DNA from: a virus
Taxonomy: Duplodnaviria > Heunggongvirae > Uroviricota > Caudoviricetes
Strand: one strand, 5' to 3'
Virus record (IMG/VR): IMGVR_UViG_2681813269_000009
DNA: 10,441 bases
The position numbers and the translations under genes were made by a program. Of the stretch, positions 1,783 through 7,102 are shown one piece after another (position 1 is the stretch's first letter; each line of letters opens with the position of its first letter). Below the pieces are notes generated by a model that was not told where the DNA came from, made no database searches, and saw nothing but the letters and a program-made list of their open reading frames with translations.

Positions 1783-1958
1783 TGCAGCGGGTGCTTGAGG
1801 CTATCTGTCTCAGGCATGAACACCAAAAGGCAGATAGAGAAAAGCCCCAGTTAACATTACGCGTCCGGCAAGACGCTTAACATTAATCTGAGGCTCAATC
1901 TATGAACGGCAAATCTAGGTTAGCCTCTTACGTGCCGAAAGGCAAGGAGAAGCAGGCT

Positions 1959-2114
1959 ATGAAGCAGCAAAAGGCGATGTTAATCGCCCTGATCGTCATC
2001 TGTTTAACCGTCATTGTGACGGCACTGGTAACGAGGAAAGACCTCTGCGAGGTACGAATTCGAACCGGCCAGACGGAGGTCGCTGTCTTCACAGCTTACG
2101 AACCTGAGGAGTAA
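1959..2114 (+). CDS. hokD: Hok/Gef-family type I toxin (51 aa membrane peptide)
   Basis: MKQQKAMLIALIVICLTVIVTALVTRKDLCEVRIRTGQTEVAVFTAYEPEE is the Hok/Gef signature and matches my recollection of E. coli HokD/RelF. SD aaggaga at 1944-1950. The in-frame ATG at 1902 gives an N-terminally extended, mok-like frame. Position is syntenic with hokD in Qin (hok, rem, ydfU, Q). Confidence 0.8.
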   Translation: MKQQKAMLIALIVICLTVIVTALVTRKDLCEVRIRTGQTEVAVFTAYEPEE

Positions 2115-3750: not shown

Positions 3751-4131
3751 ATGACCGAGCGCATAGAATTTGTTTTACCTTACCCGCCGACGGTGAACAC
3801 TTACTGGCGTCGTCGTGGCAGCACATATTTTGTATCAAAAGCCGGGGAGCGTTATCGCCGGGCAGTGGCGCTTATTGTTCGCCAGCAGCGGCTGAAATTA
3901 AGCCTGTCCGGAAGGTTGGCAATAAAAATTATTGCAGAACCACCGGATAAGCGCCGCCGTGACCTGGACAATATTCTGAAAGCGCCGCTGGATGCGCTGA
4001 CGCATGCGGGGTTGCTAATGGACGATGAGCAGTTTGATGAAATCAATATCGTTCGTGGTCAGCCAGTATCTGGTGGACGTCTGGGGGTGAAGATTTACCC
4101 CATAATGCATGAAGAGCAGGTCAAAAAATGA
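3751..4131 (+). CDS. rusA: RusA-family Holliday junction resolvase (126 aa)
   Basis: Motifs PPTVNTYW, RRRDLDN and the acidic DDEQ region resemble E. coli RusA. Start abuts the upstream stop. SD ggaaag. Confidence 0.85.
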   Translation: MTERIEFVLPYPPTVNTYWRRRGSTYFVSKAGERYRRAVALIVRQQRLKLSLSGRLAIKIIAEPPDKRRRDLDNILKAPLDALTHAGLLMDDEQFDEINIVRGQPVSGGRLGVKIYPIMHEEQVKK

Positions 4132-4949
4132 AACTGGAAGATTTACCGAAATACTACTCCCCAAAATCCCCTTGCCTGACCGATGCATCGGCCTCAACGT
4201 CAAAAGATGCGCTGAGTATCACTGATGTGATGGCCGCGCAGGGCATGACACAGAATCGGGCTGAGATGGGGTTTTCTGCGTTCCTGGGGAAAATGGGCAT
4301 CAGTATGAATGACAGGGCGCGGGCAACAGAATTACTGGCAGATTATGCACTCAGTCGGTGCGATCGTGTGGCGGCGTTGAGAAAACTTCCGGCAGAAATA
4401 AAACCGGTAGTGATGCGCATTATGGCTTCGTACGCTTTTGAGGATTATGCCCGCAGCGCAGCGAGTAAAAAGCAGTGCCCTTGTTGCTATGGGGAAAAAT
4501 TTATTGAAAGCGTAGTTTTTACAAACAAGGTCCAGTATCCGGATGGTAAGCCGCCGGTATGGGCAAAGTGTACGAAAGGTGTGTATCCGTCTTACTGGGA
4601 AGAATGGAAAAAAGTCAGGGAGGTGGTAAAAGTTGCCTGTCCGGAGTGTGGCGGAAAGGGTGAGGTTTCCACCGCCTGTAAGGATTGCCGTGGGCGTGGT
4701 GTCGCCATTCATCGTGAAGAGTCGGTAAAACGTGGTATGCCTGTTATCAGAGACTGCCAGCGTTGTGGTGGTCGTGGCTATGAAAGACTACCATCAACGG
4801 AGGCATTTAATGCTATATGCGAGGTGACAAACCAGATAACACGCGCGTCATGGGAAAAAACAGTTAAGAAATTTTATGATGCGCTGGTGACCCGGTTTGA
4901 TATTGAAGAAGCATGGGCTGAGCGGCAGTTAAAAAAGGTAACTAGGTAA
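4128..4949 (+). CDS. Late-gene antitermination protein Q (273 aa)
   Basis: ATGA overlap with the rusA stop. Multiple CxxC pairs (CPCC, CPECGG, CKDCRG, CQRCGG) typical of zinc-binding Q proteins. Immediately followed by a promoter plus short-transcript terminator. Confidence 0.8.
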   Translation: MKLEDLPKYYSPKSPCLTDASASTSKDALSITDVMAAQGMTQNRAEMGFSAFLGKMGISMNDRARATELLADYALSRCDRVAALRKLPAEIKPVVMRIMASYAFEDYARSAASKKQCPCCYGEKFIESVVFTNKVQYPDGKPPVWAKCTKGVYPSYWEEWKKVREVVKVACPECGGKGEVSTACKDCRGRGVAIHREESVKRGMPVIRDCQRCGGRGYERLPSTEAFNAICEVTNQITRASWEKTVKKFYDALVTRFDIEEAWAERQLKKVTR

Positions 4950-4954
4950 CAAGG

Positions 4955-4982
4955 TTGATTTTTCCGGAATCTGTGGTAAATT
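4955..4982 (+). promoter_or_regulatory. Candidate late promoter PR' (with presumed qut region)
   Basis: -35 TTGATT (4955-4960), 16-bp spacer, extended -10 TGgTAAATT (4974-4982), directly downstream of the Q stop. Confidence 0.5.
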
Positions 4983-5030
4983 CGTCATAACGATGGGCGT
5001 TTTATGCCTGACGTTAGAAGAGTTTCTACA

Positions 5031-5053
5031 ACCCGCCGCCGAGCGGGTTTTTT
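5031..5053 (+). terminator. tR'-like Rho-independent terminator
   Basis: Stem acccgc / gcgggt with loop cgccga, then TTTTTT. Lies about 45 nt downstream of the predicted PR' start, as in lambdoid PR'-tR' modules. Confidence 0.6.
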
Positions 5054-5173
5054 ATGACTGAAATCGCGTCAGTACAGTAAACGCGCTGGTGGCGGTGAAT
5101 ACCTGTCTTTCAGCTTGCTGGCTTTTTCGACAAGAGTTATTGGTGTGTCACGTTAACCGGAAAAGGAAAAGAC

Positions 5174-5371
5174 ATGCTAAAACAGCAGGATATGACAGAA
5201 ACCGCCAGAGTGGTGTTTAATGAATTAAGCGTTACCGAACCGGCGACAGTCGGGGAGATAGCGCAGAATACTTACCTTTCACGCGAACGCTGCCAGTTAA
5301 TACTGACCCAGCTGGTTATGGCGGGTCTGGCAGACTATCAGTTCGGTTGTTACAGACGCCTTCCGCAGTGA
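5174..5371 (+). CDS. Small hypothetical protein (65 aa), HTH-like
   Basis: Strong SD aaaggaaaag before ATG at 5174. Segment ATVGEIAQNTYLSRERCQLILTQLVMAGL looks like a helix-turn-helix. Not recognised as a named family. Confidence 0.5.
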   Translation: MLKQQDMTETARVVFNELSVTEPATVGEIAQNTYLSRERCQLILTQLVMAGLADYQFGCYRRLPQ

Positions 5372-5382
5372 AGGCTTTTTTA
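5358..5382 (+). terminator. Candidate Rho-independent terminator overlapping the stop of the 65-aa ORF
   Basis: Stem gcctt / aaggc with loop ccgcagtg, followed by tttttta. Confidence 0.45.
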
Positions 5383-5398
5383 TTTGTGGTAAATGGGC

Positions 5399-5429
5399 GG
5401 CTGGTGGGTGTTAGGGGCACCCACCAGCC
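5399..5429 (+). promoter_or_regulatory. Perfect 12-bp inverted repeat (hairpin or operator candidate)
   Basis: ggctggtgggtg (5399-5410), loop ttagggg, cacccaccagcc (5418-5429). No T-tract follows. Confidence 0.4.
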
Positions 5430-5521
5430 ATCTGCTCATGCGTTGGGTTCACAAGCAAACCTCAGGCCCACTGCTTTGCGCAAAAGCAGAATGAGCCTAT
5501 CAGAGACAGGCTTAATGATCC

Positions 5522-6580
5522 ATGCTTAATACTGTAAAAATATCCAGTTGTGAGTTAATCAACGCCGACTGCCTGGAATTTATCCGGTCGTTACCCGAAA
5601 ATTCTGTTGACCTGATAGTCACGGACCCGCCGTACTTTAAAGTGAAGCCTGAGGGCTGGGATAACCAGTGGAAGGGCGACGATGATTACCTGAAGTGGCT
5701 GGACCAGTGTCTGGCGCAGTTCTGGCGGGTGCTGAAACCTGCCGGAAGTCTTTACCTGTTCTGTGGTCATCGCCTGGCATCTGATATCGAAATCATGATG
5801 CGTGAACGCTTCAGTGTGCTGAACCATATTATCTGGGCGAAGCCGTCCGGACGCTGGAACGGATGCAACAAGGAAAGCCTGCGGGCGTATTTCCCCGCCA
5901 CAGAGCGCATTCTGTTCGCGGAACATTATCAGGGGCCGTATCGTCCGAAAGATGCCGGGTATGCGGCGAAGGGCAGTGCACTGAAACAGCATGTGATGGC
6001 CCCGCTGATTTCTTACTTTCGTGATGCGCGAGCTGCCCTGGGGATAACGGCAAAACAGATTGCAGATGCCACAGGAAAGAAAAACATGGTGTCGCACTGG
6101 TTCAGTGCCGGTCAGTGGCAGTTGCCGAATGAAAGCGATTATCTGAAATTACAGGCGCTGTTTGCCCGGGTGGCAGAAGAGAAGCATCGGCGTGGTGAAC
6201 TGGAAAAGCTCCACCACCAGCTGGTGGATACGTATACCTCACTGAACCGGCAGTATGCGGAGCTGCTGAGTGAATATAAACATCTGCGGCGGTATTTTGG
6301 CGTGACGGTGCAGGTGCCGTATACCGATGTGTGGACGCATAAACCGGTGCAGTTCTATCCCGGGAAACATCCGTGCGAAAAACCGGCAGAAATGCTGCAG
6401 CAGATAATCAGCGCTAGCAGTCGTCCGGGTGACCTGATTGCAGATTTTTTCATGGGGTTGGGTTCGACAGTGAAAGCGGCACTGGCGCTCGGGCGTCGTG
6501 CAATTGGCGTTGAGCTGGAGACTGAACGTTTTGAGCAGACGGTTCGGGAAGTACAGGATTTAGTCAGCCAGAACGGATGA
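5522..6580 (+). CDS. DNA amino-methyltransferase (N6-adenine or N4-cytosine), orphan (352 aa)
   Basis: DPPY catalytic motif at aa 35-38 (nt 5624-5635) and a C-terminal FxGxG AdoMet motif (DFFMGLGST), the order seen in beta-class amino-MTases. No restriction endonuclease partner in the window. Confidence 0.85.
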   Translation: MLNTVKISSCELINADCLEFIRSLPENSVDLIVTDPPYFKVKPEGWDNQWKGDDDYLKWLDQCLAQFWRVLKPAGSLYLFCGHRLASDIEIMMRERFSVLNHIIWAKPSGRWNGCNKESLRAYFPATERILFAEHYQGPYRPKDAGYAAKGSALKQHVMAPLISYFRDARAALGITAKQIADATGKKNMVSHWFSAGQWQLPNESDYLKLQALFARVAEEKHRRGELEKLHHQLVDTYTSLNRQYAELLSEYKHLRRYFGVTVQVPYTDVWTHKPVQFYPGKHPCEKPAEMLQQIISASSRPGDLIADFFMGLGSTVKAALALGRRAIGVELETERFEQTVREVQDLVSQNG

Positions 6581-6620: not shown

Positions 6621-6696
6621 GGCCCTTTAGCTCAGTGGTGAGAGCGAGCGACTCATAATCGCCAGGTCGCTGGTTCAAATCCAGCAAGGGCCACCA
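6621..6696 (+). tRNA. tRNA-Ile2 (anticodon CAT, lysidine type; Met not excluded)
   Basis: Hand-folded cloverleaf: acceptor ggccctt / aagggcc, anticodon loop ctCATaa, T-loop ttcaaat, 3' CCA. Closely resembles E. coli ileX and the ileZ of Stx phages, from memory. Confidence 0.8.
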
Positions 6697-6703
6697 TCAC
6701 ATA

Positions 6704-6780
6704 CCGCCATTAGCTCATCAGGAAAGAGCGCCAGCCTTCGAAGCTGGCTGCGCGGGGTTCAAGTCCCCGATGGCGGTCCA
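6704..6780 (+). tRNA. tRNA-Arg (anticodon TCG)
   Basis: Acceptor ccgccat / atggcgg, D-stem gctc / gagc, anticodon stem ccagc / gctgg with loop ctTCGaa, T-arm cgggg-ttcaagt-ccccg, discriminator t, CCA. Confidence 0.75.
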
Positions 6781-6793
6781 TTATCTGCATCAT

Positions 6794-6833
6794 GCGTTGT
6801 TAGCTCAGCCGGACAGAGCAATTGCCTTCTAAG
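6794..6833 (+). tRNA. tRNA-Arg (TCT), 5' part only, truncated by assembly gap
   Basis: Identical to the first 40 nt of the complete tRNA at 7103-7179, then runs into N at 6834. Confidence 0.5.
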
Positions 6834-6982
6834 NNNNNNNNNNNNNNNNNNNNNNNNNNNNNNNNNNNNNNNNNNNNNNNNNNNNNNNNNNNNNNNNNNN
6901 NNNNNNNNNNNNNNNNNNNNNNNNNNNNNNNNNNNNNNNNNNNNNNNNNNNNNNNNNNNNNNNNNNNNNNNNNNNNNNNNNN
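6834..6982. other. Assembly gap (149 N)
   Basis: Run of N. Confidence 1.
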
Positions 6983-7002
6983 AAATCCAGCAAGGGCCAC
7001 CA
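6983..7002 (+). tRNA. 3' end fragment of a second tRNA-Ile2 copy
   Basis: aaatccagcaagggccacca is identical to 6677-6696 and emerges from the gap. Confidence 0.5.
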
Positions 7003-7009
7003 TCACAAA

Positions 7010-7089
7010 CCGCCATTAGCTTATCAGGAAGAGCAGACGACACGATAACAGGGTTGTTGGTGCGGGGGCGGGTCCCCGATGGCGGTCCA
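7010..7089 (+). pseudogene. Degenerate tRNA-Arg-like element
   Basis: Keeps the acceptor stem (ccgccat / atggcgg), a D-arm and 3' CCA of the Arg-TCG tRNA. The anticodon and T arms are replaced by gacgacacgataacagggttgttggtgcgggggcgggt, which has no canonical 7-nt anticodon loop or TTC T-loop. Confidence 0.45.
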
Positions 7090-7102
7090 TTATCGGTATT
7101 CA

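Follow-up and report, generated by a model that had tools for sequence, protein, structure and literature searches.

Introduction

In type I toxin-antitoxin systems, such as hok/sok, tisB/IstR-1 and zorO/orzO, a small, structured and constitutive antisense RNA lies opposite the 5' leader of a harmful gene, and in the cases of IstR-1 and OrzO the pairing region is situated upstream of the start codon, not on the start codon itself. Temperate phages likewise possess antisense RNAs that damp a lytic or toxic function in lysogeny, including lambda OOP against cII, lambda paQ against Q, P22 sar against ant, the C4 RNA of P1/P7 and the CA RNA of N15. Here, we describe a structured RNA element located directly upstream of an orphan DNA methyltransferase (methylase) gene, in a 10,441 nt stretch of DNA from a virus of the Caudoviricetes (IMG/VR record IMGVR_UViG_2681813269_000009; the whole stretch analysed is hereafter termed the window). 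The element appears to be an undescribed cis-antisense RNA that guards a toxic gene, and to represent a new RNA family that has been missed by current genome annotation.

The methylase belongs to the family of M.EcoGII, which is a widely used reagent enzyme. Methylases of this type were found in the prophages of more than one third of complete Escherichia coli genomes, and numerous other phages of enterobacteria and of Vibrio also carry them. M.EcoGII is a non-specific adenine methyltransferase that is unexpressed in lysogens and is deleterious under constitutive expression; its discoverers gave no account of how this silence is kept, and did not discuss the upstream region (Murray et al., PMC5778455). 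A concrete and testable answer would be a conserved gene for an antisense RNA that occupies the interval from the late terminators to the methylase. We found no prior description of the RNA in Rfam 15, in the RefSeq/GenBank annotation of matching records or in the full-text literature (on N15/phiKO2 late control, StxS, antisense RNA and methyltransferases, and the prophage small RNAs (sRNAs) of enterohaemorrhagic E. coli), in a search that was limited and in which absence is not proof.

Structure and conservation of the RNA element

The initial annotation of the window had drawn attention to a small helix-turn-helix (HTH)-like open reading frame (ORF), a terminator and a perfect 12-bp hairpin directly upstream of the methylase, and all four of these features are present in the sequence as described. 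The hairpin is, however, one helix of a larger, conserved and covarying structured RNA element, which we identified in lambdoid, N15-like and Vibrio phages. As modelled on the minus strand, the element consists of a helix P4 (5471-5489; CUGCUUU paired with AAAGCAG) and of a three-way junction (5394-5470), in which helix P1 (5394-5398 with 5466-5470) closes around P3 and P2. P3 (5430-5440 with 5450-5460) comprises 11 bp, with four G.U pairs in the window, and P2 (5399-5410 with 5418-5429) is the 12-bp hairpin itself, with 12-nt arms that are 100% complementary in the window and a 7-nt loop. P1 is followed by a U-run (5393-5391). The whole would correspond to a predicted antisense RNA of ~100 nt (5388-5487, minus strand), with its 5' end at ~5487 (+/-2) and its 3' end, which is uncertain, after UUUA at ~5390-5388.

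We searched for the element with two covariance models (R1 and R2, with seed alignments A3 and A6), of which R1 was built on the plus strand from 13 enterobacterial sequences; within the window, these models matched the 5388-5487 region only. Covariation was assessed across 56 non-redundant members, with 500 shuffles and slid models as controls. With the minus-strand model, 86.5% of cells were paired, compared to 68.5% in shuffles, and 421 cells showed double changes, compared to 123 in shuffles, with none of the 500 shuffles reaching the observed value. The plus-strand model of the same 56 members had ~85% of cells paired and 344 double-change cells, compared to 111 in shuffles, and the slid controls were 30-53% paired over the two models (32-53% with the minus-strand model). 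Pairing was found in 99% of cells for P1, 93% for P3, 94.7% for P2 (with double changes in 11 of the 12 pairs) and 87% for P4 (with double changes in all 7 pairs), and at one locus (L027) a G to A change in P1 is matched by a change of C to U. Across ten genera, the ~150-nt spacer upstream of the methylase was 87% identical at the nucleotide level, compared to 73% and 74% for the genes that flank it.

The element has no counterpart among the families in Rfam 15. No family reached the gathering score over the element in the window, the sole overlap being P26 on the minus strand (24 bits vs. 36, E=0.16), and no match at gathering score was found in 13 diverse member loci. A hammerhead, and other known ribozymes and riboswitches, were considered and rejected, having no Rfam match. 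We also rejected a mini-ORF over the hairpin (MGGWWVL followed by a stop, a possible Trp-Trp leader peptide), which is unconserved in Providencia and other relatives.

The initial annotation had suggested that the palindrome could be a protein binding site, which in its most explicit form would be a DNA operator for a dimer of the winged-helix (wH) protein encoded by the small ORF, controlling the methylase in the style of the controller (C) proteins of restriction-modification systems. The strong linkage between the wH ORF and the methylase gene, a fold that is typical of DNA-binding regulators and the perfection of the inverted repeat in the window are all consistent with this idea. However, the arms are wholly different, yet complementary, in N15, phiKO2, Hafnia, Yersinia, Vibrio and VHML relatives; 92-95% of P2 cells are paired despite complete turnover of the arm sequence, with many double changes, whereas the best-conserved helix of the protein (CQLILTQL) is constant. 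The stem is imperfect in most relatives, with bulges and wobble pairs, and a palindromic operator cannot account for the long-range helix P1 of the larger covarying fold. In addition, 20 of the 56 representatives have the hairpin and the methylase without the wH gene, and we identified no C-box, no Xre-type HTH and no endonuclease. An operator is thus very unlikely. A search of the window for further copies of the palindrome arms returned chance-like matches with 2 mismatches only.

The hairpin is GC-rich, has a perfect stem, and lies downstream of a terminator in a terminator-rich leader, as might be expected of a second plus-strand terminator, or of a hairpin that stabilises or processes the late transcript. 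The stem is not a plus-strand terminator, because it is followed by ATCTGCTCATG in place of a T-run, and it was not flagged in a terminator scan. As such a role would also leave P1, P3, P4, the wobble asymmetry and the minus-strand promoter described below unexplained, we consider it extremely improbable.

Three independent rearrangement or replacement breakpoints were identified inside P2 (L002 ~4392, L003 ~4367 and L031 ~2395-2405), and the perfect palindrome may be a recombination-prone site.

Strand assignment and a predicted antisense promoter

Wobble asymmetry, folding energies and a candidate promoter together argue that the structured RNA is encoded by the minus strand and lies antisense to the methylase leader. 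Among the non-Watson-Crick cells of P1-P4, the plus-strand alignment contained 87 A.C and 29 G.U cells, whereas the minus-strand alignment contained 181 G.U and 26 A.C cells, an asymmetry of 7:1 for the minus strand. The minimum free energy (MFE) was lower on the minus strand in 53 of the 56 members (mean -45.2 vs. -37.3 kcal/mol, p=3e-10), and the shuffle-corrected z was -4.27 for the minus strand and -2.76 for the plus. Considered by helix, P3 preferred the minus strand in 53 of 56 members, and shows CG<->UG<->UA and GC/GU/AU series on this strand only, while P4 preferred the minus strand in 20 members and the plus strand in 1. In the window, the minus-strand MFE structure is exactly the covariation-supported fold (z=-5.07), whereas the plus-strand MFE structure is a different fold, which is unshared by distant clades.

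We additionally identified a conserved plus-strand box, GAGCCTATCA, that reads on the minus strand as TGATAGGCTC, an extended -10 promoter sequence. In the window, the predicted extended -10 of the antisense RNA (TGATAGGCT; 5494-5502, minus strand) is made up of TG at 5502-5501, an A, and TAGGCT at 5499-5494, in agreement with the conserved TGnTAnnnT. The invariant columns of the box are exactly T-12, A-11 and T-7, and TG is near-invariant. TAnnnT was found within 2-9 nt of P4, at a spacing of 5-6 nt before it, in 54 of the 56 representatives, compared to 22% in shuffles, and TAnnnT preceded by TG in 42 of 56, compared to 1.9% in shuffles. This pattern, at the level of sequence, points to a minus-strand promoter. 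At the other end of the element, P2 in N15 is followed by CCCACUUUUU, which was flagged as a minus-strand terminator, and in another locus (L309) a strong minus-strand hairpin (2195-2171), followed by U6, lies immediately after the element.

Two further candidates were rejected. A fifth helix, 'P5', was paired in 55-64% of cells on either strand, this poor pairing being explained by the stretch being the promoter, and a plus-strand promoter (TGnTAAAT) just 5' of the hairpin is better read as the minus-strand 3'-end U-run (UUUCA).

These data bear on whether the structured RNA might instead be the sense 5' leader of the methylase mRNA, functioning as a riboswitch, thermosensor, protein-binding operator or attenuator for an mRNA without a Shine-Dalgarno sequence. 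Several features fit such a leader. The orientation of the element is constant, always just 5' of the methylase, and the methylase ATG is not preceded by a Shine-Dalgarno sequence at normal spacing; the plus-strand MFE structure pairs GGUCA with UGAUC just upstream of the AUG; the start-proximal stretch (5494-5521) contains, on the plus strand across relatives, 68 G.U vs. 17 A.C cells; and in the Vibrio clade an ORF similar to the Mu translational activator Com lies between the element and the methylase. Our initial model, based on RNAalifold and the MFE structure of the window, was indeed a plus-strand leader or riboswitch (with pairing of box A and GCUCAU, and a long stem that occludes the start codon), but was dropped as the primary model because of the excess of A.C over G.U cells, the energy comparison and the promoter match. 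The wobble asymmetry, the energies (with the plus strand folding worse in 53 of 56 members), the P3 series, the MFE structure of the window, the GAGCCTATCA box, which fits a minus-strand extended -10 position by position, and the dedicated minus-strand terminators of some clades therefore reverse the sense-leader model, which we now view as quite unlikely.

Linkage of the RNA element to the first late gene

Full-length R1 matches were found solely just 5' of the methylase, in 62 of 89 and 55 of 80 methylase-seeded viral loci, and R2 added 19 further loci. A pattern scan seeded from the RNA only returned 57 model-confirmed loci, with an M.EcoGII-type methylase directly downstream of the element in 52, and the wH gene upstream of it in 50. 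Among the exceptions, one locus (L283, 3297-4464) has a C5-cytosine methylase (PF00145) downstream of the element, and three (L296; L309, 2189-3051; L322, 5427-6561) have a holin and an endolysin directly downstream; in L309, a gene for the antiterminator Q and a plus-strand terminator were identified just upstream. Thus, the element is a leader feature of the first late gene past the terminator tR', which is usually the promiscuous methylase. In one locus (L308), the ORF and the element are kept and the methylase is a truncated C-terminal remnant. E. coli remnants that lack the methylase also lack the element, with breakpoints inside P2.

An alternative is that the minus-strand RNA acts mainly in trans, as a prophage sRNA of lysogens on host or other phage mRNAs in the manner of StxS, AsxR, HnrS and Pas, with its position being incidental or secondary. 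Unpaired stretches of the RNA are conserved and its 3' end is rich in U, the element occurs at four loci without the methylase, and the late regions of pathogenic E. coli prophages are rich in trans-acting Hfq sRNAs (PMC4104026, PMC7547250, PMC13502914). Against this, even very distant phages keep the element in one position and orientation with respect to the first late gene, it is lost along with the methylase in the E. coli remnants, its U-tail is short for Hfq binding, and we could name no target. We therefore consider an action mainly in trans unlikely. Identity with StxS, Pas, HnrS, AgvB or AsxR was rejected: the locations differ, and 'methyl' is not mentioned in the StxS paper or in the recent sRNA papers checked.

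The methylase

The methylase gene (5522-6580, plus strand) encodes a 352-aa orphan beta-class N6-adenine DNA methyltransferase (PF01555, E=8e-42). The motifs TDPPYF (N-terminal) and FFMGLGS (C-terminal FxGxG) stand in beta-class order, and the protein is 95% identical to the methyltransferase of phage 1720a-02, an enzyme that Murray et al. name as very similar to M.EcoGII (PMC5778455). On the grounds of domain match, motif order and identity, it is a member of the M.EcoGII family, and by analogy to M.EcoGII itself (PMC5778455) it would be non-specific and toxic. In diverse phages, methylases of this kind are positioned just upstream of the lysis genes.

The initial annotation had described the methylase as an orphan, which our data bear out. 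No endonuclease gene was found in the window or in 20+ relatives, the neighbours being Q (upstream), three tRNAs (downstream) and late genes. At the 5' end of the gene, a sense-strand hairpin at the translation start or ribosome-binding region is possible, judging by the pairing pattern on the plus strand.

In the Vibrio clade, we identified a 36-aa Mu Com-family zinc-ribbon ORF (PF10122, E=5e-6) between the RNA element and the methylase, for example in Vibrio phage ST2-1pr (L113:1328-1438), with related loci L121-L135. This suggests an extra, Mu mom-like control by translational activation in Vibrio phages.

The small winged-helix protein

The small ORF (5174-5371, plus strand, ATG start; 65 aa; phrog_331, E=1e-37) is a genuine gene for a stand-alone wH (HTH-type) protein, as the HTH-like call of the initial annotation had anticipated. 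Across ten genera its dN/dS is ~0.10, with synonymous sites saturated, indicating purifying selection. The AlphaFold (AF2) model is a confident winged helix (pLDDT 89.5), with the layout H1-H2-H3-beta-hairpin (H4-16, H26-33, H37-49, E53-56, E59-62). Foldseek matches were to the wH domains of IclR, MarR/OhrR, the dimerisation domains of O-methyltransferases and SelB, all at E>1e-3, with a best TM-score of 0.82 against IclR-type wH domains. Sequence searches returned a sub-threshold match to the TrmB wHTH only in Pfam (E=0.003), no significant match in the PDB and no family in NCBIfam. The protein family is narrow, with 84 clusters (at 50% identity) matched among 1.84 billion proteins, essentially all of them 45-115 aa in length and stand-alone. 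Our results flag a narrow, uncharacterised ~65-aa winged-helix family as a frequent partner of the RNA element.

The methylase lies 3' of the ORF, at a fixed spacing of ~150 nt, in 23 of 24 ORF-seeded species loci. Local jackhmmer searches linked the 65-aa protein to gp51 of N15 and phiKO2, and to 82-aa ORFs of Vibrio phages, next to the methylase; in N15 and phiKO2, an annotated late promoter and terminator are situated between the wH gene and the methylase. Among close relatives seeded from the methylase, 76 of 77 have the ORF in front of it, but the ORF is lacking in 20 of the 56 representative loci, which keep the methylase and the hairpin element. The initial annotation had proposed that the small protein could regulate the methylase; the wH protein is a conserved accessory and possibly a regulator of the late switch.

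Late promoter region and prophage context

The window comes from a lambdoid, phiP27/Stx2-like prophage, of which it represents the late-regulatory (Q/late-promoter) region. The features run in the order DUF551, hok/sok, DUF968/ydfU, rusA, Q, the module studied here, tRNA-Met/Arg/Arg, and STnc100 copies with an insertion sequence (IS). The Q antiterminator gene (4128-4949, plus strand; PF03589 Antiterm, E=6e-55; phrog_127) is followed on the same strand by a pR'-like late promoter (4955-4998), with a -35 of TTGATT (4955-4960), a -10 of TAAATT (4977-4982), a predicted +1 at ~A4989 and a sigma-dependent pause box, AACGATGGG (4989-4997). The 4955-4998 region can be aligned with lambda pR' and with the annotated N15 late promoter, having TTGAyT, GGTAAATT and the AACGATGGG pause box in common with them, and from this likeness we infer that it would function as a late promoter.

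The first terminator after pR' is a tR'-like intrinsic terminator (5030-5057, plus strand), with a 7-bp GC-rich stem and then a T run, whose position matches the annotated N15/phiKO2 terminator. A second intrinsic terminator before the methylase (5358-5381, plus strand; stem 5358-5375, then TTTTTT) lies over the stop codon of the small ORF, and relatives keep a hairpin at this site, with different sequences. The module is thus behind one terminator and contains another, and the pR' likeness and the tR'-like terminator place it in the leader of a Q-dependent late operon. In Stx prophages, pR' is constitutively active and is terminated at tR' (PMC7547250). Transcription from pR' to tR' in the window is predicted to yield a short RNA (~65 nt) from the sense strand, comparable to lambda 6S or StxS.

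The whole 651-nt module was matched in 3137 of 5426 complete E. coli genomes, and many E. coli genomes have just the first 106 nt 3' of Q. Past tR', the sequence of the window (5050-5070, TTTTATGACTGAAATCGCG) resembles the junction of tR' and the RNA element in N15 (TTTTGTGCCTGAAAAAGTGGGCG, L112:1860-1885), a hint that the lambdoid lineage acquired the wH gene by insertion at this junction. The nearest phage records were Stx2a phages, phiP27 and 1720a-02, at 90-96% identity. Several of the nearest phage relatives have stx2AB directly after the tRNAs; no stx gene was found in the window.

Other features of the window include a complete hok/sok-type type I toxin-antitoxin locus (1789-2114, plus strand; Rfam sok, 112 bits, overlapping a 70-aa mok/hok ORF), with a weak isrK-like match just past it (2123-2204). 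Downstream of the methylase, we identified tRNA-Met(CAT), tRNA-Arg(TCG) and tRNA-Arg(TCT) (6621-7179), followed by two good copies (8005-8194 and 9474-9662) and one weak copy (8233-8421) of the STnc100 sRNA. An IS3-type transposase (8416-9234, minus strand) lies between the STnc100 copies, resembling an IS insertion in a repeated late-region sRNA locus.

Proposed function in lysogens

With little more than even confidence, we favour a role in which the cis-antisense RNA, together with the two terminators, keeps the toxic first late gene off in lysogens. The extended -10 promoter would drive transcription from a start at ~5487, and the resulting ~100-nt RNA would fold into the P4 hairpin and the three-way junction of P1 around P3 and P2, with a short U-run at its end. 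In the methylase leader, positions ~-35 to -135 are fully complementary to the predicted RNA, whose promoter faces pR'. During lysogeny, the RNA would most likely neutralise transcripts leaking past the two terminators, with the pairing leading to RNase III cleavage or to a translational block; a second route could be convergent-transcription interference with read-through polymerases. After induction, abundant read-through by Q-modified polymerases would override the block. The anatomy of the gene, the conservation and covariation of the structure, its strand, the conservation of the promoter and the linkage to the first late gene are observed features of these loci; the production of the RNA, its repression of the methylase and the route of that repression are inferred from sequence.

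Several observations weigh against this reading. We found no good -35 for the predicted antisense promoter, and a generic promoter scan of the window returned nothing. Only 3 U residues follow P1 in the window, and most E. coli-type members have 2-4, so that the 3' end of the RNA is uncertain. P2, taken alone, shows no strand preference (minus in 28 members, plus in 20), and alignments fitted by covariance models lean to the structure of the model. The G.U excess on the plus strand next to the methylase start implies that some structure of the sense leader is also likely. A direct block of the ribosome is not obvious, because the methylase start codon lies outside the region covered by the RNA. 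Finally, as some members precede a holin without the methylase, 'methylase-specific' would be too narrow a description of the element.

The cis-antisense RNA may have a further partner in the wH protein, although we hold what follows to be rather doubtful. The protein, the antisense RNA and the promiscuous methylase could act together as a three-part late switch, a kind of switch that has yet to be described. In lambdoid phages, where its gene comes first on the Q-antiterminated transcript, the wH protein would shut the antisense promoter, which is predicted to overlap the methylase start region, or would bind the RNA, so that a leak-proof OFF state gives way to a committed ON state. Winged-helix domains such as those of SelB bind RNA hairpins. 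More remotely, the wH protein might read or shield the N6-methyladenine (m6A)-modified DNA made by the methylase, the sensing of m6A having been described for some prokaryotic wH domains (PMC11037411).

If the proposed role is true, the antisense RNA would add an unrecognised layer, beyond Q and tR', to the control of the late operon that carries the Shiga toxin genes in close relatives.

Comparison with known systems

The initial annotation had likened this locus to the C-protein/methylase modules of restriction-modification systems. The resemblance holds in so far as the gene for a small protein with a DNA-binding fold directly precedes a methyltransferase gene on the same strand, in tight linkage. 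It breaks down in other respects: the protein has a wH and not an Xre fold, there is no endonuclease, and there is no evidence of autoregulation. The sole palindrome lies downstream of the ORF and is an RNA helix, with no C-box upstream of the ORF, and the protein is dispensable in 20 of 56 lineages. Membership of the C-protein restriction-modification systems thus fails on the fold, the operator and the missing endonuclease.

The locus resembles type I toxin-antitoxin systems in that the element is opposite the methylase leader, with its pairing region upstream of the start codon. In contrast to those systems, the putative target is no small membrane peptide but a DNA methyltransferase of 352 aa (at some loci, a C5 methylase or a holin), and it would be under the control of a Q-antiterminated late promoter. 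The three-way-junction fold belongs to no Rfam family, and no post-segregational killing is implied.

In the Mu com-mom system, as here, a toxic late phage gene for DNA modification is subject to several layers of control, including post-transcriptional ones, and a Com-family ORF is present in the Vibrio relatives of our locus. The window, however, lacks Com, the proposed regulator is not a translational activator but an antisense RNA, and the enzyme is a methyltransferase and not Mom.

Unlike the cis-antisense RNAs of other phages, of which paQ and OOP are mentioned in PMC7547250, the element lies directly past tR' and opposite the first late gene. It has no similarity to those RNAs in sequence or structure, and its conservation extends over lambdoid, telomere (N15-like) and Vibrio phages. 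With lambda 6S RNA and StxS it shares a regulatory neighbourhood, the window having its own pR' and tR' at 4955-5057 (PMC7547250). Those RNAs are transcribed from the sense strand, lie upstream and are unrelated in sequence, whereas the element described here would be a separate gene on the opposite strand.

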